A stretch of 64,000 nt of DNA. Source: Bugula neritina (taxonomy: Eukaryota; Animalia; Bryozoa). The stretch covers positions 16,300,581 to 16,364,580 of the forward strand of contig OZ037767.1 of NCBI GenBank assembly GCA_964035545.1, written 5' to 3'. Under the pieces are notes generated by a model. The model had not been told where the DNA came from and made no database searches. It saw only the letters and a list, made by a program, of their open reading frames with translations. Below, piece after piece: positions 3,001 to 64,000 of the stretch (its first letter is position 1; each line of letters opens with the position of its first letter). Made by a program: the position numbers and the translations under genes.

Positions 3001-3610
3001 TGTCTGGTGTGCGGTGTCTCTTTGAGCTCCTTACAGACGACACAGACTTGGGATCAGGAGTTCTGCAACAGAAAACATGTGTGAAACCAGACGTGAGAGC
3101 AAACTGCGAAGAGAGTAACTGAAGGCTGTTGACTAAACTTCCACGTACTTGTCATCCATCTGCTGAGAATGTGCTTCCTTGTTAGAGCCAGAGCAAGAGA
3201 GCTTGGTCTCAGTAGTGGATCCAGAGAGCTCAGGGCCAGTGGTGGATCTAGAGAGCTTAGGACCAGTGGTGGATCCAGATGGCCAGTGGTCAGTGGTGGA
3301 TCTAGCGAGCCGGTGGTCAGTGGTGGATCCAGCGAGCCGGTGGTCAGTGGTGGATCCAGAGAGATCAGGGCTAGTGGTGAGTCCAGAGATCCTGTGGTCA
3401 GTGGTGGATCCAGAGATCCTGTGGTCAGTGGTGAATCCAGAGAGCTCAGGGCCAGTGGTGGATCTAGATGGCTTATCACTATAGAATGCTGCCTGAGCTT
3501 TGGTTTCTTCCAGAATTTGTTTCACCGTTTCAGATCTCAGTTCTACCAACTCATCTCTAAAAGACTTCATACTACAAATAAAACATATTATGACACAATT
3601 GGTACTCACT
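1..3610 (-). CDS. BUB1: Partial duplicate of BUB1/MadBub (middle exons only; continues beyond the left window edge; 5' exons absent); functional status unknown
   Basis: Colinear, same-strand match to 55228-59378. Exons at about 3146-3571, 2971-3061, 2697-2810, 1973-2419, 1343-1393, 735-923 and 1-158 keep open frames and GT-AG sites (ABBA repeats FQVYVD, ARLASTPF, LSAISE). Homology stops abruptly at about 3610. Confidence 0.8.
181..724. repeat. Intronic 21-bp minisatellite (AGAATAGCACACAGTAGACTA), about 25 units
   Basis: Direct tandem repeat; same unit as 55408-56562. Confidence 0.97.
1575..1935. repeat. Degenerate 9/18-bp intronic repeat (TGTCAAGTGTGGCAGG-like)
   Basis: Visible tandem units; counterpart at about 57405-57745. 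Confidence 0.85.
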
Positions 3611-20538: not shown

Positions 20539-23500
20539 ATGGCAGAATCCAGAGTTGTGAAAAAAAGAGTAAACAACTCGTATCGCTGTGGGTACTGCTC
20601 ACAGTACTTCAACAAACTTGAAGACCCCAGAACTCTGCCCTGTCTGCATGTGTACTGCATGAGATGTTTGAAGACTGACATCGGTGGTAGGAAGGATCAT
20701 ATCAGATGTGCTTATTGTAGGTGAGTTACAGTAAATAACACAATATATCATGTCATAGACTTGCATATAATTTTCTCACTATTATCTAGGAGTTGTCTGA
20801 TCTGTGTCTATGAAAAGCTAACAATACTGTATATTCTATGTGAACTCTGGTTAAAAACTTGTGGATAATGAATGTATTTTTGCTAATTATTTAAATCCAA
20901 TTTAAATGCTCCCACTTTTTGTACCTTCTACCCTCTATAATTTTATATAATAGAGTTTTGTTAATCATTGTAATTGAAGTCAAAGTTTTGGCATCTGAAA
21001 AGGTGTCTATTATTAAGTACTTTGCTTAGTAATTAACAATAAGTTCTCACTATTATTAGCAGACAAAGTTTTAGCGAACAGTCTTTTTCTACTTCTCAGA
21101 TATATCTTGTGTCTTTTCATGGATCGATCGATCTGAGACAGTGATTGTGTGATAGCCTGTGGTCTATATAATGATGTGTGTTGATGAGTGATGAGTATCT
21201 ATTTGAGTATTTGTCAAGGACATAGCTGTGTGTGTGGATGGAGTATTTCATTACTTGAGACATCATATTATATTAGACTTCCTGTATACTAAACAGAGAT
21301 AACACACTGAATAATATATTTAAGGAAAGATCACTATGACATAACAGACCCCACTACTCTACCTGTCGCAAAGCATGGAGACCCGCTGGAATATAAATCT
21401 CCACCCAAACCTGCACCCATTCCTTGCGATGTTTGTAAAGATGGAACAGAAGCTGCCACGTTCTGTGTCGACAGTCAAAAGAGGTTGTGTCAGCAGCATC
21501 AAGAAGTGAGTCTTTCTTAGTAGTAGAGGGTGGATGGTCCTGGCTCACTCTTCTTCCCCTGTCGAGTCTTTGACTCGCCAGTGTCAGAAGAGCGATCCAG
21601 GACGCATCCACCCTCTACTACTCTATTAGTTTTTTTATTAAGTTTTAAAAATTGTACATTTTAGTAGTCAAGTTTTTAACTCTTTCCGGTGTCCTAGGAC
21701 GCATTCACCTACTACTTTATTATTTTATTAATGTTTTTTAATATTAATTTAGAATATTTTGCTCCAGAAATTTTTCCCCCGTCGAGTTTTCGACTCTCCG
21801 GTGTCCCAGGACGCATCCACTTACTACTACTCTATTAGTTTTTTTATTAAGTTTTAGAAATTATACGTTTTAGGACAGTTTATTATTTTATTGTTTCAAA
21901 ATTGTACGTTTTTTAGGGCAAACATTAATCCTTCCCCCGTCGAGTTTTCGGTGTTCCAGGACGCATCCACTTACTACTCTATTAGTTTTTTTTGTTAAGT
22001 TTTAGAAATTATACGTTTTAGGACAGTTTATTATTTTATTGTCCTAGAATTGCACGTTTTTAGGACATACATTAACTTTTATTTTGGAATGTATTCACTC
22101 GTTACTATTAGTAATAAATTATTATACGCTAAGAATATAATAATTTATTAATAGTGTTTAAACGTTATAACTTGAAAATGTTGGTAAAGATTCAGTAGAT
22201 TCGGTTATACCTCCATCGCTAGTTGATATTACTAATTTATTACCCGTTGCTCCTTGTAATTTAGGAATAGCGTAATTATCTATATTATAAGTAGTAATAA
22301 TATCCGCAATGCTTATACCGGTTTCTATAATATTACCATCACTCGAAAATATTAATAATTTACTTCCCGTTGATAATTGCGGTTTAGGTATAGCAAAATT
22401 ATTTATATTACTAGTCGTAATAACATCGCTAACGCTTAAGCTACTATCTATGACATTACCCGAAGTAGTTGAAACGGTTAATTTTTCATTCGCGGGTTGT
22501 ATTTTATTTATAGCAAAATTATTTATATTACTAGTCGTAATAACATCACTAACGCTTAAACTACTATCAATAATATTACCCGTATTAGTTGATACGGTTA
22601 ATTTTTCAGTCGGGTCTTGTATAAGAGGTACGGCGTAATTAGATATATTAGTTTTCGTAACGACGTCATCAACTTTTAAATTACTATCTATAACGCGTCC
22701 GTCATCAGTTGATATAGTTAATTGATTAATAGGGTTTTGTATAAGAGGTATTGCGTAATTAGATACATTAGTTTTTGTAATTACATCATCAACTTTTAAA
22801 TCACTATCTATAACGCGTCCATCATTAGTTGATATAGTTAACTGATTAATAGGGTTTTGTATTTTAGGCATACTCGTATCATCAACGTATTTTTTTGTAG
22901 CCGCGTCTTGATCGTCAGCTGGATCAATAACTCTAGATATTTTATTTTCCCCCATATCTAGCGTACCCGTAAGAGTACTACTACCATTTATTAAAACGAA
23001 TTTTTTCGTATTTATTTCCGTTTTTCCACTTCCTCCGAATTTATAAACACTCATTTATTACGGTATATAAAATTCGTCTAATCCGTGTCTATACCTTCCA
23101 TTATTTTTTGAGGAAGAAAGATCTAAAGTAATAAAGCCGTGAGGTTTTTGCCATCCTTTATAACAAAAGTTTTTAAATTCGTTTAACGTTAAATCTCCGT
23201 TTATGTGATCTTGATATATATGATTTAAATTTTTTCCGTCTTGAGGAAATAAACAAATAAAATTAGCGTTTTCCCGAATAGTGTTTCTAGGCAGCTTAAA
23301 ATAATTTTGCGATAAATAAAAACAATCGACGTTATTGTGCCGTCCTCTTACGTAATAACTTTCGCAAGTTTTTTGTTTTTCCAACATTAAATCATCGAAT
23401 ATTATTAAATTTTTATTATTAGCGTCTAATTCGCTAGGATCATAAACGTCGTCACTAGATTCGATAAATTCGGCGTTTATATTACCGTTACCCCTACTAT

Positions 23501-26500
23501 TTTTTAAAACACGAGTTACGTTTATACCCGAATTTATTATCGCGTCACTATTTTTAAAAAAATTTAAAATTTCTTCTTTAGTTAATTTACGTTCGAAAGC
23601 CTTCCTCATATTTATATATTCGGGTTGAGAAAGGCTTTTTCCGTAAATCATAAGTTTATCGTAATCGAGCCAATTAGGTTGTAATAGCAAGTTACAAAGT
23701 AACGTAGTTTTACCGCATCCAGATTTTCCAACGATAAGACCTCTTATGCTTTTAGGAAGTAAAGGATTATTATTACGATTAATTTCGTTTTTCCACGAAA
23801 GATTTTCTATTTCCATTTATTATAATAAATGTATTGTTGTAGGTGTAAAACTAAAACGAAAACTCTTAATTATGAAAAAAGAGTAAGTAAAAATAATAGA
23901 CTAATGGGTTACGGTAATTGCGGTCATTGCGGATGTAAAAAGACTACATTTGTTGGGTTGGGTTTAGCGAATAATTTAATAAATAATTTACCCTTTGAAT
24001 TGCATTATCCAGGTCATAATTTTTTAGGACCGGGTACTAAATTAAATAAGCGTTTAAATGACGACACGACTCCTAAAGAATGGAGTAAACCGGTAGATCG
24101 AGACGACGCTATAGCCATGAGACACGACGTGTGTTACGCGCTTAATAAAGATACTAAGACTAGAAACGAAATATGCGATAAAAATATGCTAGACGAATTA
24201 AAAGCTATACCTAATCCTACGCCCTCTGAACAGCGACACAGTCGTTTTGCCTCGGCAATAATAGGAGCGAAAAAGCGTTTAGGATGGGGATGGACGAACG
24301 AGTTAGCCGAAGAATTACATAAACCCGTACAAAAAAAATTTCGTAAAAGACGAGTTTGGGTATCGGGTATTGATAATATTTGGGCTGCTGACTTGGTTGA
24401 TATGACTGAATTCGCTAAATTTAATAACGGTTATAAATATTTACTAACGGTAATAGACGTGTTTTCAAAATACGGTTGGATAATACCTTTAAAAAATAAA
24501 ACCGGTAAAGCGACGGCTTTAGCTTTAAAAACAATTTTAACTCGTCGTAAGCCACAACATTTATGGGTTGACAAGGGAAAAGAGTTTTATAATAAAGACG
24601 TAAAGTCCTTAATAGACTTATATTCTACGGAAAATGAAGAAAAGTCTAGCGTAGTAGAGAGGTGGAATAGAACAATGAAAGAGCGAATGTTTAAATATTT
24701 TTCGGCTAATAATACTTATAAATATATAGACGTACTAAAAAATTTAGTAAAATGATATAACGAGACTAAACATTCGTCTATTGGAATGACACCGATTGAA
24801 GCTAGTAATCCCTCTAATGAAAATAAAGTACGCGTAAAATTATATTCAAACTTACCAGCGCCTTCTAAACCTAAATTTGCTATAGGTGATAGAGTGCGTA
24901 TACCTCGTAAGAAACGAACGTTTGAAAAAGGTTATACAGTTAGATGGACGGAGGAAGTGTTTACTATAAGTAAAATATTATATACTAATCCGACTACTTA
25001 TAAATTAACTGACTCGGGAGGAGAAGAAATTCAAGGATCTTTTTACGAACAGGAATTACAAAAGACGAGTCAAAAAATGTATAGAATAGAACGCGTAATT
25101 AAAAAGAAAGGTAAAAAGGCTTTAGTAAAATGGTTGGGTTATCCCGATTCTCAAAACTCTTGGGTAAATTTAAACGTTTTAGAACGATTATAGTGGACAC
25201 AAAAGTGAATATTAGACACAAATGTGGACACTAGACACAAATGTGGACACAAAAGTGGACACTAGACACAAAAGTAGACACAAATGTGGACACAAATTAA
25301 TATATAATAAATGAGTTACTTAAAGATTCACGACCCTATAAAAAGAGATAAAATTGTACAAGATTTTATTTCTCAAAAGAATAAATTAAAAGAAAATTTT
25401 AAACGAGAACGCGAGCGAGAATTAAATGCCGCGATAGCTCAAGAAAAATATTTTGAACCCGTAACGACTTCGCAAGCTCAAACGACTGACGCGTTAAAAC
25501 AATTGCTTACATTACCCAATTATAATGTTCAACCGGCTATAACGGATGGAGTTATAAATTTAGACGAATTTACGCAAAACGCTTTAGCTGGCTTAGAACC
25601 CGGCGCTTATAACGTAAAGTGGGATGGTAATAGACACGTTATTGGTACAAAACCTATAAGCTTTAACGATGGTAAAATAATTTTTGAAAACGAAGAATAT
25701 CCGGCGACTAGAGGACTTTTAAGTCTTTTAACGCGTAAAACGCCTATAGGATACGATGATAATGATTTAGCGAATTACGCTAATATACTCGATAATAGCG
25801 GCGCTATATATCAAAGTAAACACGGTCCTATAGATAAAAATAGTGACAAGTGGAGACGTATCGTTAGACCTATTTGGGAACAATTATATCCTCAGAGAGC
25901 GAAACTCGCCGATAGTAAAAAAGCTAAAAGGCAAGTCGGTGATGGAGTAGTATATTTATCGTCTGATCCTAACGCTTTAATAGAACGACTCGAACTTTTA
26001 ATTTCTAGCGCTAAAGCCGGAAATACGGGAGTGCGAAACGAAATTGTGTCTATATTAGACGAATTACTTAGAATGAAAATTATTACTCGTGATTATTATA
26101 AAAGTATTCTCGTATAATAAATGTACGTTTACGATAAAAGACAACGATTACAAAAACACTACGCCGGTGGTGGAATATTTGATACCATTAGGAATGTAGT
26201 AACTAAAATAGCTAGTAATTCTAGCGTAAGAGAATTAGGTAAAAAGGCTATAGCTAAAGCGGGTACCGCGGCCGGTGAAAAAATTGTTAACGCGATTAAA
26301 AAAAGAAGGCAAAAAAAATTAAACGCTAAAAGTCAAGCTATATTACAAAAACTTAGTTTAGCTAAAGATGTATTAAATAATAATAATATAAGTAATATTT
26401 TAGAAGGAAGCGGACAAGCTATAGCTTATTAAGAAATTATTTTACTATAATAAATGGACTCTCTAAACATTACGCAAAAAATTGTACTCGATACGAGCGT

Positions 26501-29500
26501 AGAGCGCGATCAGGTACACGAATATGAACCCGTAACGGGAACGAATTTAAATTACCCCGGTGAAATTAGAATAGTTATTAATCAACAAGATTTGTACGTT
26601 CAGCCGAGTAAAAGTTATTTGATTATCGAAGGACGTTTAACGAAAAATGATGGAACCGCTTACGCCGACGCCGACTTAGTAACGTTAATTAATAACGGTA
26701 TGGCTTATTTGTTTAAAAGTATTAGATATCAACTCGACGGACACGACTTGGAATATATAAATAATCCCGGACACGCTTCGACCATGATGGGTTTATTAAC
26801 TTATCCCGACGACTACGGCAAGTCGAGAGGTCTTAACCAATTATGGTCAAAAGATACTACCGCAGCCGCTGCCGCCGCTAATTTAGGTTTTAACGCGCGT
26901 CAAATTTATATTATACAAAAGCCTGATCCTAAAGGTACTTTTAGTATTAAAGTGGATCTCAGACATTTGTTTGGGTTCGCTGACGATTATGAAAAAGTAT
27001 TATACGGTATAAAACATCAATTAACGCTAGTACGCGATACCAACGATAACGCTATATTTAGAGCTAACGGTGTAGACGCGGGAAAAATAACGTTGGATAA
27101 AGTATCGTGGTGGATGCCTCACGTAACGCCTAGTTTTGAAATGAAGCATAAACTCTATAAAATTATAGAAAGTAAGGCGCAGCTTCCCTTAATTTATAGA
27201 TCTAGATGGTGTGATAGTATCGCGGTGCCGCAAACTACAAACTTTACGTGGCGTTTGGGTTCTAGAGGAGATACCGAAAAACCTAAATATATTATTGTAG
27301 GTTTTCAAACGGATAAGGCTGAAAGTCAAACGACTAATCCGGCTGTATTCGATCACATTAACGTTAAAAGTATATACGCGATGCTAAATAGCGAGCGATA
27401 TCCCGAAGTTGATTATGATATAGATTTTGCTAAAATGAAGTTTAGTAGAGTGTACGGAGACGTTTCTAAATTTTGCGGAGAATATTACGGTATAAACGAA
27501 CTAATCGCTTATTCAAACGTATTACCTTCCGAATATAAAGATCTTTACGCTTTGTTCGTAATAGACGTTAGTAAGCAAAGCGAGGCTCTTAAAAGTAGCG
27601 TAGCCGATATTCAATTAAGAGTACAGTTTAGTCAAAATGTGCCGGCTAATACTCAAGCGTACGCATTAATTCTATCGGATAAAACTATGTCTCTCGGTTC
27701 CGATGGAAATAATTTAAAAGTTATATAAATGGAAAACAAATTATTAAGAGAAATTGCTGATAATACGGCCTCTAAACAAACAATGACTATAGGAGTTACC
27801 GATACTAAAACGAGAATAATTACTCAACTTAATCCGCCTATAGAGTTAAATAAAAATAAAAAATACGAAATGTGTCTTATTAGTTTAGATACGTTTTATT
27901 CTTTTCCAAACATTAGTACCGATAGAAATTCCTATAGATGGTCTAAAGACGGTGGTACTACGTGGCATTTAGTTTCGTTACCAGTCGGAGTGTACGAATT
28001 AGATCAACTAGAAGAAGCTATTCAAGACGAAATAGTAAAAGAGGGGGGTAATAGAAACGGTATTACTTTGCAAGCTAATAAAGTAACTTTTAGAATTATA
28101 CTTAAATTAAAACCTAATTATCGAGTAGATTTTAACGTTGAAAATTCTCTAAGAGACGTTTTAGGTTTTGACGCGGCGATATATGATCAACCATATATCG
28201 AAGCTACGAACATAGTAAATATTTTAAATATAAACGCTATACACGTACAAGTTGATTGTATTAACGGAAGCTATATCGATGGTACTTATAAACCCGTTAT
28301 TTATTCATTTTTTCCGAGCGTTAGTCCGGGGTATAAAATAATAGAAAAACCTCATAATTTAATATACTTACCCGTTCACGTTAAATATATTAAGACGTTA
28401 ACCGTTACGGTAACCGATCAAAAGGGTAATTTATTAGATCTTAGCGGCGAACAACTTTCAATAAGATTTCATTTAAGAGAAGTTTAACGTGTTATATAAA
28501 TGGGTTATTGCGAAATTATAGGAAATGTGCCACAGGCGCAAAAACAAAAAATAATGAACGCTTATAGAAGCGGTAAGGGTTGCGTTATTAAATTGCCTCT
28601 CGAAAGCGGAAACGATAAACTAGTCGTTACGAAAACGCAAAACGATAATATTTTAAAAGCGTTAAACGTGAATAAAAAAAATATAACGCTCGAAATGTCT
28701 CCGTCATTAGTAAAAACTAACGCGTCAATGAGCGGAGGATTTTTAGGAGCTCTATTAGGTATAGCCACGAGAGTAATACCTACGCTATTAAAAACTATTA
28801 TACCCGGCGTACTTTCGGGAGCCGCTAGCGCGGGAGTCGAAAGAGCTATTAAAGGTAAAGGTCTTTATTTAAAAAAAGGTGGATGCGTATGTTCCGTAGA
28901 ACCTAATTCAAACGGTTCTATTACTTTAAAACCAGTCGCGTCGTCTAATTTAATGAAGGGTAACGGTTTATATTTAAAACAAGGTTCTAGCTATATAAAA
29001 GGCGAAGGTTTAATTTTAGGTCCGAATAGTCCGTTTAAAAATATTCCTCTTTTAGGTATGCTGTTATAGTTTAAGAAAACATATATAAATGTCAACAGTA
29101 ATTATTTATAAAAGCCTCGACGGCACCCCAATTACCGAAACAATATATAAAACTTCCGAATACGAAAAACGAATGTACGAAAGCGGTGATTTAAAAGAAA
29201 TAATTATATATAAAAATTTTAATATATTAAACGAAATGACTAATCCGTCTAACGAACGAGGATTGTTTGAAGAACGCGTTTATACTAATAAAAGAGAAAT
29301 TATTTATAAAGAAGATGATGGAAAAATAAAAATAAAAACTATTTATAAAACTAAAGAAATAATTCAAGAACTTAATGTAGGTTTAATGAATTATGCGGCG
29401 GCTAGAATACCGTCATTTTTTACTAAACTAAAATACGCCGAAGACGAAATAGAAAAAAGAAGAAATGACGCTTTACATTAAAATATTATAGTTAAAGAAA

Positions 29501-32500
29501 ACATATATAAATATTAGCAGCCTATACGGATATTTTTGTATTGAACTCCCTTTTTTAATTAATTATAATATATAATTAATTAACAAACGTTACGAGCGAC
29601 TATTATATCGCTTTTTTTATCCGATATTACGTTATTAATATTTTTATATTTTTCGGTTATAGCGTCATACTCCTGTTCGTCTATATGAGAGTCGCTTAAA
29701 AATTTTGATAACATAGAATTAATTTCTAATTTTGAATCTTTTATAAAGGTATATATATCTAAATACATTAACGTAGATTTAATTAATTTAGTGTCTTGAG
29801 AAGAAATAGAAGTAGTAATTACACTCATTATACTTACAATTATAGATAATGGTAATAACGTTTGTTTAGTAACGTTAGCGTTTAATAACGCCGTAATAAT
29901 GACACCGCATATTAAATTCGTTGTACCGCATAATCCCGAAATTATTTTTAACGATTTTGATAACCAATTAAAACGATTAAGTTTTTGTTCGTATTCGTTT
30001 TCTAATTTAATAATTTCATCGTTTAAGAGTTCTAATTTTTCTCGTCGAAAATCCATTTATATAAAAAAATGATTTTTATTATTTTATTATTTTATAATAT
30101 GGATCTTACCGTTGAATTACTCGATAAACTAATAGCTGAAGCCGAACAAAAAAAATATACACCGTTACTCGAATATTTATATATACCAGTAATTAATAAT
30201 ATATCTCTTAAAGAAATTAATTTTAGAACGAGAAAACAAATTCCTAACATTAATAAATATTTTTATATAAAAAGTATTTTAAAACGCGAAGCTTATAAAC
30301 GAAAAGAAGAAAATAAAGACGTATAACAGCCCACGTTAGTTTCTCAGTATTATTACTTATTTTACATAAGTAATAATATTAAAAATTGATATTACTATTA
30401 AAGAATATATTATATAAATGGAGTTCAATACAAAAATTACCGTAAAAGCTTTAAAGGCTTTAGCTAAAGAAAGAGGATTAAAACGATATTCTCGATTAAA
30501 AAAAGCCGAACTTATACGGCTATTATCGCCTATGGACGAACCCGTTCCAAATATAGGACAAGCCCCGTTAATACCTACACCCGTAAAAAAAATTATGCGA
30601 GAAATATTTACACAAACTACGCGTAATATAAAAAAATGGGTTGTAAAGCCAATTATAAAAATTATAAATCCAATTAAGGATAAAATTATGGCTTTATATA
30701 ATCAACCTAAACTTAAAGAACAAGCCGCTAACGGTTGGTTTCAAACTTATGAAATTAAAGGTTTACCCGGATACGATATAAATTCATTTTGCAAATTAGT
30801 AAAACTAAACGTACTAAAATTATTAAAACCTACTATAAAAGTTAAAATATTTATATATTGCGAAATGAAAAAGCATAATATAAGTACCGGAGAAATTATT
30901 ATAGAAACTATGCCATTTACATCAAATGTTGAAATTATATTAGCTTCTACGAATATTAATGAAATATACGATGAAATAATTGAACGTATAAAAGAAAATT
31001 TTGCTTCATTAAACGCGAAAGGAAGTAGCTGGACGTTTAAAGCCATTAAAAAAATGGAAATTAATATTAATAAATATCAACCTCTTAACGGATCATCGTG
31101 GATTGATCTTCCAAAAGAAATTAAATTAAAGAAAGCCGTAATAAATCCAAAAAATAAAGACGATAAATGCTTTATGTGGGCCATTTTAATGGGAGTTTAT
31201 CCGGTTAATAAAAATGTTGAAAGAATTAGTAATTATAAAGAGCACGTTAATAAATTATTGTGGGAAGGAGTAGAATTTCCGGCTACGAAAGAATCCATCG
31301 ACGCTTTTGAAAAAGTTAATCCCTCAATAGGAATTAATGTATTTATGTGGGACAGTAAAACGATAAATTTATGGAGAAAAACTAGCAGTCAAAATAAAAT
31401 TATAAATTTACTTTATATAACTGATGGCAAAAAAAATCATTATACGTATATTAAAAATTTAAATAAATTACTCGGTTCGCAAATAAATAAACGCGTTAGC
31501 GCTAAACATATTTGCGTAAATTGTATGAATTCGTTTCGATCTAACGAATCATTAAAAAAGCATCAAGATTGGTGCTTAAGAAACGATAGCGTGACTACGA
31601 CATTTCCAAAATTAGAAGATAAAATAAAATTTCAGTCTAGTCATTATTGTCGTGGTATGAGAGTACCGTTTGTAGTATACGCGGACTTTGAATGTTTTAC
31701 AAAGCCTATACAAGGCTGTAATCCTAATTTTAAAGAAAGTTATACTAATCAATATCAACAACACGAACCGTCGGGTTTTGGATATTATATAGTAAGCGTT
31801 ACCGGCGAGTGTAATTATAGAAGTTATACTAAAGAAACCGAAGACGAAGATATTGGCGAACAATTTATAAGACTATTAGAATTTGACATTAAAAATATTT
31901 ATAAAAAACATAAATTCGCTAAAACTATGCAAATTAGAACTGACGAGCAAAAGTCTTTTGAGTTGGCCAAAATTTGTTATATATGCGAAAAAGAATTAGG
32001 CGATGACAAAGTAAGAGATCACTGTCACTTAACCGGAAATTATAGAGGAGCCGCGCATAAAAATTGTAATTTAAATTATAAAATTCCAAAATTTTATCCA
32101 ATATTTATTCATAACTTGTCGGGTTATGACGCCCACTTATTTATTAAAAATTTAGGCGGTGAACCTTCGTGTATACCTAATACCGAAGAAAAATATATAT
32201 CTTTTAGTAAAAAATTATTAGTAGACGAATTTACCAATAAAGAAGGTGAAAAAATTAAAGTTACGCGTGAAATTCGCTTTTTAGACTCGTATAAATTTAT
32301 GAGTTCTAGTTTAGCGAGTTTAGTGGCGAATTTAAAACGCGATGACTTTAAATACTTAGGTGAATATTATAAAAAAAAACAATTAAACTTGGTATTAAGA
32401 AAAGGAGTATTTCCGTATGACTATTTTAATAATCTAAGCGTGTTGAATGAAACGTCTTTACCACCTAAAGAAAAGTTTTATTCAAGCTTAACCGAGCAAA

Positions 32501-35500
32501 ATATTTCGGAAGAAGATTATATACGCGCTCAAAAAGTTTGGCGAGAATTTAATATGAGAACATTTAAAGAATATCACGATTTATATATGAAAGTTGATGT
32601 ATTACATTTAGCCGACGTTTTTGAAAACTTTAGAAACGTGTGTTTAAAATATTACAAATTAGATCCCGCTTGGTATTATACGGCCCCGGGTTTAAGTTGG
32701 GACGCTATGCTTAAAACTACTAAATTAGAACTAGACCCAATTACCGATGTTGACCAATTACTCTTCTTTGAAAAGGCTATTAGAGGCGGTGTAAGTATGA
32801 TCAGTCATAGATACGCTAAAGCCAATAATAAGTATATGAAAAATTATAACGCTAGCGAACCTAGCAGTTATATTACTTATTTAGACGCTAATAATTTATA
32901 CGGTTGGGCTATGTCCAAAAATTTACCCGTGGGTAATTTTAAGTGGATGACTGAAAAGCGATGTAAAAACTTGGAAAAAAGTTTAAATTTTCCGCCCAGC
33001 TTTTTAGAAGTAGATTTAGAATATTCTAAAAAATTACACGATTCGCATAAAGATTATCCATTTTGCCCCGAAAGGTTAACGATTAATAAAGTAGAAAAGT
33101 TAGTGCCAAACTTAAATAATAAAAAAAATTATATTATACATTACGAGGCGTTAAAACAATGCCTTATGTATGGCTTAAAATTAACAAAAATTCATAGAGG
33201 TATAACCTTTAATGAATCGAATAAGTTAAAAAAATATATAAAATTAAATACCGAACTAAGAACTTTAGCTCGAAGCGATTTTGAAAAAGATTTCTTTAAG
33301 CTAATGAATAATTCCGTGTTCGGTAAAACGATGGAAGATATTCGTAATAGAGTTAACGTTAAATTAGTTACTAGTGAAAGCGAAGCTAAAAAGTTTACTA
33401 ATCAACCAAACTTTAAAAGCTTCACTATATTTTCCGAAAATTTAATAGCCGTTCATATGAACGTAACTAAATTAAAGTTTAATAAACCGGTATATTTAGG
33501 AGCGGCTATATTAGATATAAGTAAAACTCTAATGTATGACTTCCATTACGAGTATATTAAACCAAAATACGGTAATAAGGCTCAGTTATTGTTTACGGAT
33601 ACCGATAGCTTAATGTATCACATAAAAACAGAAAATTTTTATAAGGATATATTACCAGACATTAAAAATAAATTCGATACGAGTAATTATCCTAACAATC
33701 ACTCGTTACCAACGGGTGTGAATAAAAAAGTAATAGGTATGTTTAAAGACGAAGCCGGTGGAAAACAAATTACTGAATTTGTAGGCCTAAGAGCTAAATT
33801 ATATTCTTACAAGATGGATGATATAGAAGAGAAAAAATGTAAGGGTATTAATAAAACAACTCGTGATAATCGCATAACATTTGATGATTATAAAAAGTGT
33901 TTATTAACGCGGCAAAATCAGCTTAGAACAATGAACGTGTTAAGAAGTCATAAGCATACGATGTACGCCGAGACTATAAATAAAGTAGCTCTGTCGGCCG
34001 AGGATGATAAGAGAATTATACTCGAAGACGGTATAACTACAGTCCCTTACGGTTATATAAATGATTAAAATAAAAAATATAAAATTACCGAATAAAGCTC
34101 TTTCAAATATTGAATTAGAGTTTACGATTAAAAAATTAAAAATTAAAAATTTTAGAGGAGTATTTTCAAGAAACGATTTACCCGATAAACCGCGTAAAAA
34201 AGAGTGCGGTATATTAAATTTAGACAATTTAATGGGTAACGGTACTCATTGGGTAGCTTGGTATAAAAATAACAATAAAAAATATTATTTTGATAGTTTC
34301 GGATTACATCCACCGCTAGAAATAATGAAATATTTAAAACCACCTATATTTTATAATACGGAACGAGTACAAGAATTCGGTACCGTTATATGCGGACACT
34401 TATGTTTATATTGGCTTAAAGAAATGTCTAAACACGAATCGCCTCAATTAATTATAAATAAATTACTTATATAAATGACTTCAGTATATATTTTTGGAAA
34501 TTCGGCTAAGGCCACTATAATAAATGAAAAACCGTATATTACAAAGATCATAATTCCGTCAGAATTTACGTATTATTCCGAAGGATTTGCTGCTACATTA
34601 GTTAAAGATTTTTTAGTCGATGAACCAATTGAAATAACAAATATATTAGTACAATTTTACGGTGAACAAGCTCATAATACTAAAGAACTTTATTGGACTG
34701 ATAAACGAATAGGCTTACACGTTAGAAATAGCGCTGAAATATTCGGTGGAGCCAATGAAAATACTTTTTATGATATAAGCGGTGGCGAACATAATCTTCC
34801 GTTTAGCGAAATAAACGCTAATAAAATTATTGAAGCTAATAAAAATTTTAAATTAACAATGGTGTTATCAAAAACTTATCCTAGTCATAAACCTAGCGAC
34901 GTAATTTTAACCAATACTCCCGCTAGTGAAATAACTGCCGCGGCGTTACCTTTTCATTACGTATTACTAAAACTTTATTATAATTATAAATGAATATCTA
35001 TAAATTTAGTAAAGTCAATATAACGACTAATAAAGCGTATATTACGAGTATTATACCTAAACACGAATTTTATTATTACGAAGATATTAATAGCTTTACG
35101 GTAGATTTAATTAATGATTATTTAGTTAATAAATCTATAGAAATAACGCACGCGTTAATACAATTTATAATGAAAGTTTGCCTAATAATAAAACGAAAGA
35201 ATTATATTGGACCAATAAAAAATTAGGTTTACATATTCGTGATAGCGTAAACCCATTTGATGAATCTAAAGAAAATTTATTTTATAGTATTAGCGGTGCC
35301 GAACATAATGTTCCGTATAATAAAATAAATATTAATAAAACCGTTAACGCTAATAATAATTTTTCATTTACAATAGCTCTTTCGAGTGATTATCCGAGTC
35401 ATAAACCCAATGACGTAATTCTTGTTAATACACCGAGTGAATTCGCTACTGATGCACTACCTTTTGATTACGTATATTTAAAACTTTATTATAATAGTTT

Positions 35501-38500
35501 AACTAATTAAACGCTGTTATATTTTATAAAATTTATTACTAATAGTAAAAAAAATTATTTATTCAACGCTTCTTTTTTTAAAAAAAATTAAAAAAAATAT
35601 TTATATTTTAAATTAATATTTACCCTAAAAAACATACAATTTCTAAGGCAAAATATTCTAAATTAATATAAAAAAACATTAATAAAATAATAGAGTAGTA
35701 GGTGAATGCGTCCTAGGACACCGGAAAGAGTTAAAAACTTGACTACTAAAATGTACAATTTTTAAAACTTAATAAAAAAACTAATAGAGTAGTAGAGGGT
35801 GGATGCGTCCTGGATCGCTCTTCTGACACTGGCGAGTCAAAGACTCGACAGGGGAAGAAGAGTGAGCCAGGACCATCCACCCTCTACTACTTTTCTTATA
35901 TCATGTCTCAAGATTAGTTACTAAACCAGTTCTGGTTTGTATGTAGAATATTATTGAAAAGAAATGTCAAGTCTGTGTGACTTTTTATACTAAACACACA
36001 GTTTCACAGTGCAGTGAGTCAACTATGACAGACTTGTTGGTGAAAATACAACCAACTAAACTGTTGACCTTTATTATACAGACTCACAGAGAGCTGATGG
36101 GAGATAGACATCAGTTTATTGACATTGAGGTTTACAGAGCTTCTCCCCAAAGATATACTATAACTGAATGTGAACATCATAAACAGGAACAGCTGACAGA
36201 AGTGTGTTCCAATTGTCACCAGATATTCTGTATGAGATGTGATATGAGGACTGGCTGTAAGGATAAAACAGGTATTTACTTGCTGTTTCTATTTTTGTAG
36301 AAAGAAACTGAGAAATATTACACGAACCTGTTATTGATTATTTTATCATTAAAATAAGTTATGTAACAGCAAAAGAGGCCGTAGGTTTTTCAGACTGAGT
36401 TGATATGAATATTGAAACTAGATCTTGTGAAAAAAAATTAAAAAAGACACGCTAACGGCTGGAGGTATTTGTCAGCAAATTTAGGTTTGTGTGAGACAGA
36501 AGTGCATAGTGCAGGAGTTTATATTCTCACTGTTATGTTGAATATTCAGTATATTTCATCCTTCAAGTGTCTGTTTCCTTGATAAGATGGCATAGACATA
36601 ACTTTAACTCACCAGTGTCCCGCCTTTTTCAAACCATTCCGCCTTTTTATAAGTGTTTTCTATGAAGTTTCCCCCTTTTAAGAAACACTATTTTATATTT
36701 ATAAAGAAAATCTGGGACAGGTTCTTTTCCCTAATAATTCTTTGAGTGTAAGAAAAGTCACTTAGTTTTTGACAACATGGAACAGTGTCTGCAACAACTT
36801 CAGTTATTAGCTTTGAAAGCATTGATGCTGCTATTAAAAGCTGTGAGTTGATGATTAAACTCATTCATTTTAGATTCAGATTTTTTAGTGGAGCAAATAT
36901 ATCTACTAGGTATGCAGTAAATTGTTTATAGGGATCAGTTTGACTGGCTGCAAAAAATTTCCTGTTGTTTTTTGCTTTAAAGAAACTTTTTAACCTCCAT
37001 TCGTAGCAAGAGGGGTAGCAGTTAGGGTAGAGTGAATATTAGACACATGTATATAGAAGTAAACTTAGATTATAGAGTGTAGTGTGGATAAATAAGTGAA
37101 CTAAATAAAACGAAGGTTTTATAGTCTAGTTATACATATACATGTAACTTAGAATACAAGGGAAGCGCTTAAAGAGCTGGAAAAAACTGTGTGAATTTTT
37201 TAAAAATCAAAACCCCTTTTAAGCCCAAATTCTACACACGGAGGAGCTCCCCTAAGGTTGGAGCTACTGCTTTAAATTTTTTAATTACATTATTCCAAGT
37301 GCAGTGAATAATGAGCTAACCATGTGACATCTTTCTAGAATGTCCCTTTGTGTAAATTAGTGCTAGAGAAAGGTCAGCTATGATCAACTCAGATAGCAAT
37401 ACTTGAGAGAGAGTCCAACTGTTTAGTAATTACATAGTATCTGTATAGTGATACATCATCAACCTGTAGTCGCAGATAGTAGGTGTACAATATCATATCT
37501 AAAAGTATATTACTTTTATTAATAGTGTGATTTTATGTATACAGAAGAGACAGTAGCATTCCATGACTTGGCATCTTTGGGTGATTTGTCTTGTGAGTTA
37601 CGAGAAAGTCTGACTGGTGGAATAGAGACTCTGTCTAAGAAAGTTGCAGAGTTGAATGACATCTCAAAGGATGCCTGGAAAGAACTGAGTAAAATAGAAG
37701 ATGAAGTGAAGAAGATGGTTGCCAGAGTAAACGCTGTAGCTGATGCTCAGGTATGCTGACATATGGTGATGTCATCTAATGTATTTCTGTTTGTCTGAAA
37801 TTAGATTTTGCATTTGGTCTTTCAGTTGTAATCAGAAATGAATTTCATTTGTCATTAAAATTAACTGGCCATTAAAGCATTATCATTCTGTGTGCAGGTA
37901 GCAGTAGTCATGCATTCATCACATGTTACTCAGTGCAGGTGAACCTGTCAATACAGATGACTCACTCATCCTTCTCCAACTGTCAATCACTCAAACAGGG
38001 AGGTTGGCTGTGTGAGTGATTGACAGGTGTCAGGAGGAGGAGACTAGTCACGTTATGTACTAACTTTCTGCTGTGTATTATGAAGTGTCATTGTATTCTT
38101 AGTGGGTGATTTGTCACTTTCATTTCAAGTGTAGAGGTTGTGAGGTTCAGAGGTGGTTATCCTGTGTTACTATTTATTAGATAGAAAAGATTAGAAAGAG
38201 AGCTACAAACCTGAGGCTAGAAATATATGGATATTTGAAGAGCTGCACACAGATAGTGGATAATTATAGAATTGAGCTGGCCTTGAGTAAGACAATGGGC
38301 AGACAGTCTCTGCTGGACACAGTACAACATGCAGTTGATAAGTTCAATGATGCAAGGATTGTGAGAGACTACAAAGAGATGAGTGGGAAGATGGAAAAGG
38401 CTACAGATCTTGGTGTAATAGAGAAGTGTGTACTTCCAGACAGCATTTTGGTACCAACATGTAGGTGGAGTCTATAAATAGTAACACTAACTATAAATAA

Positions 38501-46675: not shown

Positions 46676-49600
46676 TTATTTCATGATAGAGTTTATTCGT
46701 TTATACTCCTTGTTATACTCTTTCATGTTAAACTCAGCCTCAAACTTTTCCCTCCATTCGCACACTGAAGGTATCTTGTCACATGACTCTATGTTTAGCA
46801 GCTCTGTAAACATCTCCGCCCATAATCTCGACTTGTATATTCTGGAGAGGAGAAAACTCCATATAATGATTACATTATTCTCACTACTCCAAATAGTATA
46901 ACAGCAATGTGAATACATGTAATGCAGCTCCTCACCATCAAACTTATTATTACAACATAAACTGCTGGTGAGACAATTCCTAATACCAGTGAGAAAACTG
47001 TTAACCTCTACAAGCCTACCTGTGCAAATTGAACTTGGCTGGTTGCCAAAGCTGGCCGTTGTAGGTGACAAGCATGTAGTTTTGGAAGAGTAGAGTGTAC
47101 ACCGTGCCCAGTATTCCAAACAGATCCGTCTGAAACATGCATGATACTGCTGTGAATACAGTGTCAGTAATACAGTAATACAAGCTGAGTAATACAGTAA
47201 TACTAGTTGAGTAATACAGTAATACTAGCTGAGTAATACAATAATACTAGCTGAGTAATACAGTAATACTAGCTGAGTAATACAGTAATACTAGTTGAGT
47301 AATACAGTAATACTAGCTGAGTAATACAATAATACTAGCTGAGTAATACAGTAATACTAGCTGAGTAATACAGTAATACTAGCTGAGTAATATAAGACAG
47401 TACCTGGTAGGTCCAGGGTCTCTGTGTCTTCATCTCGATGCACATGAACCCTTCGGTCTCGTTGTTAGCGGTGAAGGTCGTTCCTCGAGGAAACTTAGAC
47501 ATGTCAATACCTCTGCCAAAGTCTATCAGCTTTATGCTGGATGAGGAAAACGGCTTTTCGGGAAATACTTCGGGACTACACGGGGTAAAGTATACAGAGT
47601 AGAGTATACAGAGTAGAGTATACAGAGTATACAGAGTAGAGTATACAGAGTATACAGAGTATACAGAGTATACAGAGTATACAGAGTATACAGAGTATAC
47701 AGAGTATACAGAGTATACAGAGTATACAGAGTATACAGAGTATACAGAGTATACAGAGTATACAGAGTAGAGTATACAGAGTAGAGTATACAGAGTATAC
47801 AGAGTATACAGAGTATACAGAGTATACAGAGTATACAGAGTATACAGAGTAGAGTATACAGAGTAGAGTATACAGAGTATACAGAGTAGAGTATACAGAG
47901 TAGAGTATACAGAGTAGAGTGTAGAGTATACAGAGTATACAGAGTAGAGTATACAGAGTATACAGAGTAGAGTATACAGAGTATACAGAGTATACAGAGT
48001 ATACAGAGTATACAGAGTATACAGAGTAGACAGAGTATACAGAGTAGAGTATACAGAGTATACAGAGTAGAGTATACAGAGTATACAGAGTATACAGAGT
48101 ATACAGAGTATACAGAGTATACAGAGTATACAGAGTATACAGAGTAGACAGAGTATACAGAGTAGAGTATACAGAGTATAAAGACACTTACAACCCACAG
48201 AAGAGGATGTTGTCTGGCTTGATGTCTCCATGAATTATCTTACAGCGGTGCATGACCTCTACAGCATGCAGTAGCTCGATGGTGACGTACATGACTAACG
48301 ACTCCGGGATCTGTAAACAGCAGACGTAAACAAAGACTGAGCAGTGAGCAAAGTACAGTGCAACTCATAAACTGAACAGCCAATGAGAATACAGACACAC
48401 GCCAAACAGCCAATAAGAACGCAGCTTACTTTACAAGAGTTGGCCTTCATGCCGTTGACGAGGTTGAGAAGAGAGCCGAGGGGCACCAGTTCGTTGACCA
48501 TGAGGGATCCGTCGGAGAAGAAGACGGAGTGGGTGATGTCCATCAGTTTGCTGCCGATATCTCTCTCGATGTCTTCGTCCATGCAGGATACTCGCTGCCG
48601 CAACTCCTTGCAGATGTACAGTTCCCACGGGCAGCTCGGCTTCTGTGCCTTCACACACACATCGTCACTCTCGGAGAAAGCTGTAGAGTCGAGAGTGTTG
48701 CACATGGAGATTTTACCTGCGTAGAGAGACATACTCGTGTAATATAAACATATGCTAGTAATATAAACATATACTAGTAATATAAACATATGCTGGTAAT
48801 ATAAACATATACTAGTAATATAAACATATAGTAGTAATATAAACATATACTGGTAATATAAACATATGCTGGTAATATAAACATATACTTGTAATATAAA
48901 CATATGCTGGTAATATAAACATATACTAGTAATATAAACATATAGTAGTAATATAAACATATACTGGTAATATAAACATATACTTGTAATATAAACATAT
49001 ACTAGTAATATAAACATATACTAGTAATATAAACATATAGTAGTAATATAAACATACCCAAGCTGGTGGATCTGTCGGCAGAAGTTACGATAGCCTTGTA
49101 GGCAACGGCGAAACCCCCAACACCTACAAACATCGTGGCAAGTAAATATCATATCCTAGTCTAGTCATGTGTATCTTTAGTCTACCTGCACAGAGAGGGC
49201 ACCTGCACAGAGAGAGCACCTGCACAGAGAGCACCTGCACAGAGAGAGCACCTGCACAGAGAGCACCTGCACACAGAGAGAGCACCTGCACACAGAGAGC
49301 ACATGCACACACAGAGAGAGAACACCTGCACAGAGAGAGCACCTGCACAGAGAGCACCTGCACACAGAGAGAGCACCTGCACACAGAGAGAGCACCTGCA
49401 CACAGAGAGAGCACCTGCGCAGAGAGCACAGAGAGAGTACCTGCTGAAGAACTCACCCAGCTTAGACATCAGCTTTACTGTGAGATTTGACACAGTCACC
49501 TGACTGCCAACTTTCAACTTGGGCATTGAATCTTTCCTGACTTCTACATTCTCATATGACGTGATGTCAACCTATGATATATAGAGTATAGTATCATAGT

Positions 49601-52600
49601 ATTAGAATATATAGTATCATAGTATTAGAATATATAGTATCATAGTATTAGAATATATAGAGTATCATAGTATTAGAATATATAGTATCATAGTATTAGA
49701 GTATATAGTATCATAGTATTAGAGTATATAGTATCATAGTATTAGAGTATAGAGTATCATAGTATTAGAATATATAGTATCATAGTATTAGAATATATAG
49801 TATCATAGTATTAGAGTATATAGTATCATAGTATTAGAGTATATAGTATCATAGTATTAGAGTATATAGTATCATAGTATTAGAATATATAGTATCATAG
49901 TATTAGAGTATAGAGTATCATAGTATTAGAGTATAGAGTATCATAGTATTAGAATATATAGTATCATAGTATTAGAGTGTATAGTATCATAGTATTAGAG
50001 TATATAGTATCATAGTATTAGAATATATAGTTTCATAGTATTAGAATATATAGTATCATAGTATTAGAATATATAGTATCATAGTATTAGAATATAGAGT
50101 ATCATAGTATTAGAATATATAGTATCATAGTATTAGAATATATAGTATCATAGTATTAGAATATATAGTATCACAGTATTAGAATATATAGTATCATAGT
50201 ATTAGAATATATAGTATCATAGTATTAGAATATAGAGTATCATAGTATTAGAATATAGAGTATCATAGTATTAGAGTATATAGTATCATAGTATTAGAGT
50301 ATATAGTATCATAGTATTAGAATATATAGTATCATAGTATTAGAGTATAGAGTATCATAGTATTAGAATATAGAATATCATAGTATTAGAATATAGAGTA
50401 TCATAGTATTAGAGTATATAGTATCATAGTATTAGAATATATAGTATCATAGTACTAGAATATATAGTATCATAGTATTAGAATATATAGTATCATAGTA
50501 TTAGAGTATAGAGTATCATAGTATTATAATATATAGTATCATAGTATTAGAATATATAGTATCATAGTATTAGAGTATATAGTATCATAGTATTAGAGTA
50601 TATAGTATCATAGTATTAGAATATATAGAGTATCATAGTATTAGAATATATAGTATCATAGTATTAGAGTATATAGTATCATAGTATTAGAATATATAGT
50701 ATCATAGTATTAGAATATATAGTATCATAGTATTAGAGTATATAGTATCATAGTATTAGAGTATATAGTATCATAGTATTAGAGTATATAGTATCATAGT
50801 ATTAGAGTATATAGTATCATAGTATTAGAATATATAGTATCATAGTATTAGAGTATATAGTATCATAGTATTAGAATATATAGAGTATTATAGTATTAGA
50901 ATATATAGTATCATAGTATTAGAGTATATAGTATCATAGTATTAGAATATATAGTATCATAGTATTAGAGTATATAGTATCATAGTATTAGAATATATAG
51001 TATCATAGTATTAGAATATATAGAGTATCATAGTATTAGAATATATAGTATCATAGTATTAGAGTATATAGTATCATAGTATTAGAATATATAGTATCAT
51101 AGTATTAGAATATATAGTATCATAGTATTAGAGTATATAGTATCATAGTATTAGAATATATAGTATCATAGTATTAGAATATATAGAGTATCATAGTATT
51201 AGAATATATAGTATCATAGTATTAGAGTATATAGTATCATACTATTAGAATATATAGTATCACAGTATTAGAGTATATAGTATCATAGTATTAGAATATA
51301 GAGTATCATAGTATTAGAATATATAGTATCATAGTATTAGAATATATAGTATCATAGTATTAGAGTATATAGTATCATAGTATTAGAATATAGAGTATCA
51401 TAGTATTAGAATATATAGAGTATCATAGTATTAGAATATATAGTATCATAGTATTAGAATATATAGTATCATAGTATTAGAATATATAGTATCATAGTAT
51501 TAGAGTATATAGTATCATAGTATTAGAATATATAGTATCATAGTATTAGAATATATAGTATCATAGTATTAGAATATATAGTATCATAGTATTAGAGTAT
51601 ATAGTATCATAGTATTAGAATATATAGTATCATAGTATTAGAGTATATAGTATCATAGTATTAGAATATATAGTATCATAGTATTAGAATATATAGTATC
51701 ATAGTATTAGAATATATAGTATCATAGTATTAGAGTATATAGTATCATAGTATTAGAATATATAGTATCATAGTATTAGAGTATATAGTATCATAGTATT
51801 AGAATATATAGTATCATAGTATTAGAATATATAGTATCATAGTATTAGAGTATAGAGTATCATAGTATTATAATATATAGTATCATAGTATTAGAATATA
51901 TAGTATCATAGTATTAGAGTATATAGTATCATAGTATTAGAGTATATAGTATCATAGTATTAGAATATATAGAGTATCATAGTATTAGAATATATAGTAT
52001 CATAGTATTAGAGTATATAGTATCATAGTATTAGAGTATATAGTATCATAGTATTAGAATATATAGAGTATCATAGTATTAGAATATATAGTATCATAGT
52101 ATTAGAGTATATAGTATCATAGTATTAGAATATATAGTATCATAGTATTAGAATATATAGTATCATAGTATTAGAGTATATAGTATCATAGTATTAGAGT
52201 ATATAGTATCATAGTATTAGAGTATATAGTATCATAGTATTAGAGTATATAGTATCATAGTATTAGAATATATAGTATCATAGTATTAGAGTATATAGTA
52301 TCATAGTATTAGAATATATAGAGTATTATAGTATTAGAATATATAGTATCATAGTATTAGAGTATATAGTATCATAGTATTAGAATATATAGTATCATAG
52401 TATTAGAGTATATAGTATCATAGTATTAGAATATATAGTATCATAGTATTAGAATATATAGAGTATCATAGTATTAGAATATATAGTATCATAGTATTAG
52501 AGTATATAGTATCATAGTATTAGAATATATAGTATCATAGTATTAGAGTATATAGTATCATAGTATTAGAATATATAGTATCATAGTATTAGAATATATA

Positions 52601-63705: not shown

Positions 63706-63884
63706 CTAGAGAAGTGTTGAATAATTGTTACATATAAACTAGGTATGTTGCAAGACAAACTCAAAGTGTTGCATCTTTTACTTTTAGATCAAAGTCTTAG
63801 AGTTAGTACATGCATTTGAAATATTGTTACAAGTTACAGTCTCACTTTAACTTTTACTTTTAGTAATTTAAATTATAATTAACA

Positions 63885-63983
63885 ACTACTGAACTAGTAG
63901 TAGTACTACTAGTAGTAGTAGTACAGTACTAGTAGTAGTACAGTACTAGTAGTAGTACAGTACTAGTACTAGTAGTAGTACTA
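63885..63983. repeat. Imperfect (AGT)n microsatellite
   Basis: Read directly. Confidence 0.85.
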
Positions 63984-64000
63984 CCATTGTCCATTGGCAT

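Follow-up and report, generated by a model that had tools for sequence, protein, structure and literature searches.

The 64,000-nucleotide (nt) stretch of DNA analyzed here (the window; Bugula neritina contig OZ037767.1, positions 16,300,581 to 16,364,580) contains a Maverick/Polinton in which 14 of 15 gene starts read ATAAATG. The motif is genuine and far from random, in a Polinton that is ordinary in other respects, and the element is without a recognizable RNA polymerase gene. By analogy with known systems, we judge it somewhat probable that ATAAATG is a per-gene initiator recognized by the RNA polymerase that a co-infecting large DNA virus supplies; the element would then be a virophage-like parasite. 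This bears on an open question, namely by what means animal Mavericks/Polintons express their genes and for what reason their virions go unseen; according to a 2026 survey, no Maverick virions have been observed.

A heptamer shared by the gene starts

The genes appear intronless, each being a single open reading frame (ORF). They lie as follows, with lengths in amino acids (aa) and positions counted in the window:

22158..23054, minus strand: tail-fiber-like gene, 298 aa; PHROG tail-fiber matches, E 6e-6 to 9e-5; start GTAATAAATG
23058..23816, minus strand: A32-type packaging ATPase; PF04665, E 1.6e-8; start TATAATAAATG
23814..23831: perfect 18-bp palindrome CATTTATTATAATAAATG, containing both divergent starts, of the ATPase and the integrase
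23829..25193, plus strand: gene with PLA2-like domain, rve integrase and chromodomain; PF08398, PF00665 (E 7e-9), PF00385; start TATAATAAATG
25311..26117, plus strand: conserved Polinton gene, 268 aa, no family match, homologs in many loci; start TATAATAAATG, 117 nt past the preceding stop
26121..26432, plus strand: small basic gene, 103 aa; start TATAATAAATG
26454..27728, plus strand: double jelly-roll major capsid protein; PF21738, E 9e-58; start TATAATAAATG
27729..28487, plus strand: probable minor capsid (penton) protein, judged from its conservation in relatives and its position, no profile match; start TATATAAATG
28500..29069, plus strand: conserved gene, 189 aa, putatively a core/mu-like protein; start TATATAAATG
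29089..29481, plus strand: lineage-specific gene, 130 aa, 8 homologs; predicted beta-meander and helices, no clear fold match; start TATATAAATG
29580..30056, minus strand: gene with two hydrophobic stretches, 158 aa; divergent start TATATAAATG
30099..30326, plus strand: 75-aa ORF (85 aa if from 30069); the single start without the heptamer
30418..34068, plus strand: presumed family B DNA polymerase, 1216 aa; start TATATAAATG, 91 nt past the preceding stop
34061..34474, plus strand: adenain-like cysteine protease; PF00770, weak, E 0.003; start motif within the final codons of the polymerase gene
34475..34993, plus strand: beta-sandwich protein, 172 aa, likely a fiber-head type domain; start TATATAAATG
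34990..35502, plus strand: tandem paralog of the 172-aa gene, frameshifted, with a 78-aa ORF to 35226; start TTATAAATG

The initial annotation had listed ATAAATG at 14 of these 15 starts, and the list proved exact in every position. The exception is the small gene, whose start at 30069 or 30099 reads TATAAAAAAATG or TATAATATG. A longer consensus, TATA(A)TAAATG, is found at 12 of the 14 starts, as TATAATAAATG at five genes and TATATAAATG at seven. Across the whole window the heptamer occurs at chance level (30 found versus 27.5 +/- 5.1 expected), so the signal is positional; 18 of the 30 copies lie inside the element, and 14 of those 18 are gene starts. ATAA precedes ATG at 14/15 starts versus 4/212 of the other ATGs of the element, counting as controls those that are neither gene starts nor in-frame internal codons (Fisher p 6e-18). 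When control ATGs in an equally A/T-rich context are taken, the heptamer is present at 1 of 34, and shuffling the upstream 20 nt of each start gives p 2e-18. In-frame internal ATGs (0/697) were rejected as a trivial control because a TAA before them would be a stop. We also ruled out that a further gene begins at the ATG at 24786, which is in frame with the integrase and 3' of a premature stop at 24753-24755.

The position of the starts relative to the upstream gene speaks to whether the motif might act in translation, with the in-frame TAA before the ATG serving stop-start reinitiation or the insulation of ORFs on long polycistronic transcripts. Most genes are co-oriented, and six of the 14 starts abut the upstream stop (two), follow it after a 3-nt gap (two) or overlap it (two), as such a role would have it. 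The other eight are divergent (three) or spaced by 12-117 nt (five), with the motif unchanged; just 12 nt separate the ATPase start (23816) from the integrase start (23829). Moreover, coupling needs no TATA(A) upstream of the TAA, yet TATA(A) is conserved. We therefore consider a translational role improbable, in keeping with the earlier claim that stop-start coupling cannot account for all starts: it covers at most 6 of the 14.

Beyond the last 8-10 nt the upstream sequences of the genes are unlike each other, and the two overlapping starts keep the motif inside the coding end of the upstream gene. Both features argue against the motif being a functionless relic, copied locally from gene to gene or handed down from an ancestor that depended on a helper, as does its retention at lineage-specific genes. 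Traces of such copying do exist. A 35-nt duplicate of one promoter stretch lies 3' of the 130-aa gene (29064-29098 versus 29486-29520), followed at 29519-29553 by a remnant of the polymerase start in inverted orientation; both look like traces of the insertion of a cargo gene along with a ready promoter. Two genes of this copy are broken as well, the integrase gene by its premature stop and the last gene by its frameshift, which would suit a relic. The duplicate precedes no gene, however, and reads TATATAAATA, without the G; we give a relic very little credence.

Relatives and large DNA viruses

Scans with the capsid profile yielded 80 metagenome loci (the top 80 among at least 261 that were confirmed) and two viral loci. 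Their starts were taken as the first ATG of ORFs that align to window proteins from the N-terminus, of which 161 were found, 147 without duplicates. A clade of 44 loci (SH-aLRT 100 in a quick tree) has the strict ATAAATG at 49/62 starts and favors AATAAATG; these loci are close kin, many of them degraded, and are counted as one lineage. The other 38 loci show a looser form, in which T-A(2-6) lies no more than two bases from the ATG at 67/85 starts. Both groups carry an A/T-rich stretch of ~30 nt that includes an A-run around -20 to -30; in the 44-locus clade the A-run peaks at ~-20 to -18. Distant Polinton-like viruses, fetched by PolB, have A/T-rich starts and few TAAATG.

The window capsid falls in a separate clade, whose nearest scored neighbors are without the strict form. 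Free trees separate the window element from the strict 44-locus clade, and in the approximately unbiased (AU) test a joint clade stays acceptable (p 0.29, based on 30 of 93 rows), so one origin or two origins of the strict motif are both possible.

The relatives show several further features. In the 44-locus clade (e.g. L009, L030, L072) coding DNA strongly avoids TpA (0.33-0.52), yet each promoter is built on TAA. Five related Polintons (L049, L057, L065, L066, L069) have starts mostly without the T-A-run and might be helper-independent lineages, of use as natural controls. A matrixin (M10 metalloprotease) gene adjoins the fiber gene in two loci (L072:1623-2279, L030:3208-3402); the L072 copy starts TTATAATAAATG, in an element whose ends are not mapped. 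PF10927 (DUF2738), which we take to be a single-stranded DNA-binding family of large DNA viruses, is present in two relatives (L026:11330-11977, L082:988-1752), and its presence in Polintons possibly reflects gene exchange with such viruses. We count both the L072 start and this family in favor of a helper-virus initiator.

The 18-bp palindrome between the ATPase and integrase genes also occurs in 22 viral contigs. ORFs start at the palindrome in 11 of these, and three of the 11 show giant-virus genes (capsid, Rpb5, Rpb9). Elsewhere in the palindrome-bearing giant-virus contigs, TAAATG starts just 5 of 50 other ORFs; a search with the palindrome is bound to favor contigs that have the motif, and it points to no particular helper. 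Judged from sequence, the start type appears to be of a general large-DNA-virus style, with a strictness most like that of poxvirus late genes.

The motif as a viral initiator

What the sequence shows is the motif and its placement, which does not depend on the upstream gene, along with the anatomy of the element and the spread among relatives; promoter function, polymerase slippage and dependence on a helper virus are what we infer. The models are poxvirus post-replicative promoters and yeast virus-like elements. On their pattern, each gene would have its own A/T-rich promoter of 20-40 nt. With initiation in the AAA, slippage of a viral polymerase would give the transcript a short oligo(A) leader. 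The mRNA would then read A...AAUG, and the DNA-encoded T at -3, present at 14/15 starts, would be absent from it and never meet the ribosome; slippage would in this way resolve what is otherwise a poor translation context. The integrated copy would be largely silent, or leakily read, until a large DNA virus infects the cell. Having no polymerase of its own, the element would need a helper, as Mavirus-type virophages and Gezel-14T do. A strict per-gene motif with T at -3 predicts 5' ends in the AAA, non-templated A leaders and dependence on a viral polymerase.

The components of this scheme have precedents. At -3 the preference for a purine is nearly universal, and U is selected against from -6 to -1 (PMC5823381). 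Vaccinia late genes have TAAAT(G) across their start site, and intermediate and late promoters have an A/T-rich core upstream of it (PMC5294985); by that definition the starts of the element resemble poxvirus post-replicative promoters in having TAAAT(G) overlap the start codon. Slippage of the polymerase on three template Ts gives a 5' oligo(A) leader, and likewise at TAAAN in yeast virus-like elements (PMC6211774). The likeness to poxvirus intermediate/late promoters (TAAAT) and yeast initiators (TAAAN) thus extends to a TAAATG with the start codon inside and an A/T-rich core upstream. Poxviruses and yeast virus-like elements encode their own RNA polymerase, however, whereas this element does not, and its initiation and slippage are argued by analogy. 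The T at -3, the A/T-rich stretch upstream of each gene and the recurrence of the motif in a second clade all fit a viral-polymerase initiator. A pox-like supplier of that polymerase would be the closest match of the motif, not a finding.

The composition of the element is also unlike that of its host. Its observed/expected ratio for CpG is 2.0 versus 0.32-0.43 in the host flanks, with a sharp step at the element ends, and its CpA/TpG ratio is 0.59 versus 1.2-1.3 in host DNA. The excess of CpG against CpG-poor flanks suggests that the lineage was not shaped mainly by host CpG loss. In relatives, the CpG ratio runs from 0.10 to 1.41, well below that of the window element.

A number of observations weigh against a helper-virus initiator. 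No helper virus was found for the element. Among the loose contig ends listed from four of 17 sequencing runs, all of them contigs of uncertain kind, none is an A leader at a gene start; contigs do not show RNA ends. A polymerase subunit was sought in the 16 window ORFs (Pfam), in two orphan folds, whose best matches are not polymerase subunits, and among 24 ORFs and 43 cargo representatives of relatives (Pfam for the 43), with no match. Early and late genes share one motif. The second strict clade is without CpG excess (0.73-0.92). The start TATAATAAATG opens genes in non-pox giant-virus contigs too, so the motif does not single out poxviruses. At the 38 loci outside the strict clade, the strict form occurs at 1/85 starts and the base at -3 is A in 78/85, which makes these starts acceptable to ordinary scanning. 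Internal TAAATG looked depleted under plain synonymous shuffles (5 versus 16.1 expected), and the apparent avoidance was gone once codon-junction dinucleotides were fixed (5 versus 8.7; 66/1000 shuffles as low). Lastly, adintovirus transcripts are reported from fish tissues, with no helper mentioned in the available text (PMC8502044).

The initial annotation had inferred, with the poxvirus late initiator as its model, that the polymerase of a co-infecting nucleocytovirus may transcribe the element. The T at -3, the A/T-rich upstream stretches and the second clade with 49/62 strict starts support this reading in part; the same start in non-pox giant viruses and the looser start of most relatives do not. 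For the defense role that was suggested as well, the evidence points neither way.

The A-run with A at -3 in most relatives, and the fish transcripts, would be at home with nuclear transcription by host RNA polymerase II (Pol II), as in adenoviruses. TATA(A)TAAATG would then be a lineage-specific A/T-rich start context, or a site for a host factor, that compaction has fixed. The integrase and chromodomain point to a phase in the nucleus, and TATAAA resembles a TATA box. A TATA box over the ATG, however, would put the Pol II start 25-30 nt inside the ORF, and there is hardly any room for promoters farther upstream, least of all in the 12 nt between the divergent starts. The T at -3 in 14/15 starts would moreover be a disfavored base in such transcripts (PMC5823381). 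On this evidence, Pol II transcription seems to us rather unlikely.

On coding strands AATAAA is not depleted (50 seen versus 48.8 expected) and splice signals are not avoided; both results fit cytoplasmic transcription, with no host control for comparison. The AATAAA count bears as well on the idea that the motif is the poly(A) signal of the upstream gene (AATAAA/TATAAA) overlapped with the next ATG. The sequence at the starts allows this, with AATAAA in 6/14 and TATAAA in 8/14, and the preference of the 44-locus clade for AATAAATG would agree. Yet three divergent starts have no upstream gene to end, AATAAA lies within 80 nt of 1/6 free gene ends (ATTAAA at 3), and AATAAA is not avoided inside genes. 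We regard a poly(A) signal as very improbable. The poxvirus early terminator TTTTTNT occurs 5 times in the window versus 7.4 expected, which is not significant. Its depletion in relatives of both kinds was rejected as a pox signal: the antisense form is depleted too, and homopolymer avoidance is the likely cause.

Among known systems, an initiator read by a helper polymerase finds its closest parallel in virophages and helper-dependent Polinton-like viruses (PLVs), namely Mavirus/EMALEs with CroV, Gezel-14T with PgV, and the Tetraselmis PLVs, which integrate, code for capsids, are without RNA polymerase and carry one motif beside their start codons. Virophages have promoter motifs in common with their helper (PMC10945749), and according to a preprint Gezel-14T, which is helper-dependent, does so too. 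The window element likewise has no RNA polymerase of its own and one motif common to its gene starts (14/15). These systems differ from it in their protist hosts, their helpers related to mimiviruses and their other motifs (TCTA late, AAAATTGA early), and their dependence was demonstrated by infection; this element has an animal host, a Maverick-type capsid and no known helper. A true virophage (Virophaviricetes) is ruled out by the capsid, which matches the Polinton-type PF21738 and not the virophage type.

In animals, Polinton-related elements found in entomopoxvirus occlusion bodies have been proposed as poxvirus parasites, two of them in the Maverick-Polinton capsid clade (Barth et al, 2024, PMC11296320). 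They differ in coming from insect occlusion bodies, in being highly divergent and in that no rve integrase was detected in some. Their promoters are not analyzed in the main text of that paper, where "promoter", "motif" and "TAAAT" occur 0 times. Adintovirus particles have also been reported from baculovirus-infected insect cells (Starrett et al, PMC8502044).

If helper dependence holds, virophage-type parasitism would extend to integrated elements of animals, and the motif could be used to fish for large DNA viruses of invertebrates that are still undiscovered. A more tentative extension, for which we see a limited chance, would make endogenous virophages of the animal Mavericks in this family. 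Their genes would be tuned to the polymerase that a yet-unfound poxvirus-like virus of aquatic invertebrates uses to make RNA in the cytoplasm; the start motif of each lineage would then be a fingerprint of its helper, and virions would go unseen in uninfected animals for this reason. In a targeted literature search, which covered few subscription papers and no preprint supplements, we found no paper reporting an ATAAATG-type start motif in animal Polintons.

The element and its surroundings

21513..21518, plus strand: target-site duplication TTTCTT, 6 bp, read directly; second copy 35892-35897
21519..35891: Maverick/Polinton, whole; 14,373 bp, 31% G+C, ends AGTAGT...ACTACT
21519..21772: left terminal inverted repeat, 254 nt, 98% complementary to 35638-35891
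35638..35891: right terminal inverted repeat
21506..35946, plus strand: presumed host intron holding the Polinton, 62 nt long once the element is subtracted; splice donor GTGAGT at 21506 and acceptor AG at 35945-35946

That the element is a Polinton, as first annotated, is confirmed by its inverted ends, the TTTCTT duplication, the rve integrase (broken here) and the capsid module (major capsid protein, ATPase and the weak PF00770 protease). Like Mavericks/Polintons (Polintoviricetes; adintoviruses, PMC8502044), it combines terminal inverted repeats and a 6-bp target duplication with an rve integrase, chromodomain, presumed PolB, A32 ATPase, adenain, double jelly-roll capsid and PLA2 domain. 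It is unlike Mavericks/Polintons as described in the available text of PMC8502044 and two 2026 surveys, where neither a shared promoter motif nor dependence on a helper is described and "promoter" occurs 0 times.

Relatives of the capsid protein number at least 3,710, and those with names belong to a scallop and a bryozoan. It shares 54-60% identity with capsid genes of mollusc and bryozoan genomes. We take the 1216-aa ORF to be PolB from its motifs DANNLY, KLMNNSVFGK and TDTDS. It has 51-56% identity to the same-position genes of relatives and no polymerase profile or PDB match. For the divergent Beta class of PolB, a missing profile match is expected (PMC8502044). The structure model of the 172-aa protein has a pLDDT of 72 and Foldseek matches at E ~1e-5 to iridovirus/ascovirus and collagen-fiber head proteins, with an unspecific best PDB Z of 7.8; on this model a fiber-head type domain is likely. 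The gene shares 70% DNA identity with its tandem paralog.

In contigs of the sequencing runs X1 and X10, position 21512 is joined to 35892, an empty site that could represent either an allele or a paralog. The intron call derives from the splice signals and from a B-box-like reading across the intron; the interrupted host gene is presumably a RING/B-box/NHL-type TRIM gene, a name we base on Cys/His spacing. The Polinton begins 7 nt past the splice donor and has enlarged the intron from 62 nt to 14.4 kb.

Subterminal repeats GGACGCATCC and CTACTACTCTATTAG run beyond the left inverted repeat (21519-22020), and short tandem repeats GTGGACAC / AGACACAAA occupy 25194-25300, between the integrase gene and the 268-aa gene. 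Rfam gave 0 matches. Contigs of run X3 have loose ends at 31457, in the polymerase gene, and at 26313, in the 103-aa gene, where other copies may carry insertions. On either side of the TRIM gene lie two gene copies, 92-96% identical, on the minus strand (1-3600 and 47000-64000); from their translations, we take the duplicated gene to be a BUB1-like kinase with N-terminal exons. A 23-nt satellite of ~220 copies spans 49494-54800.

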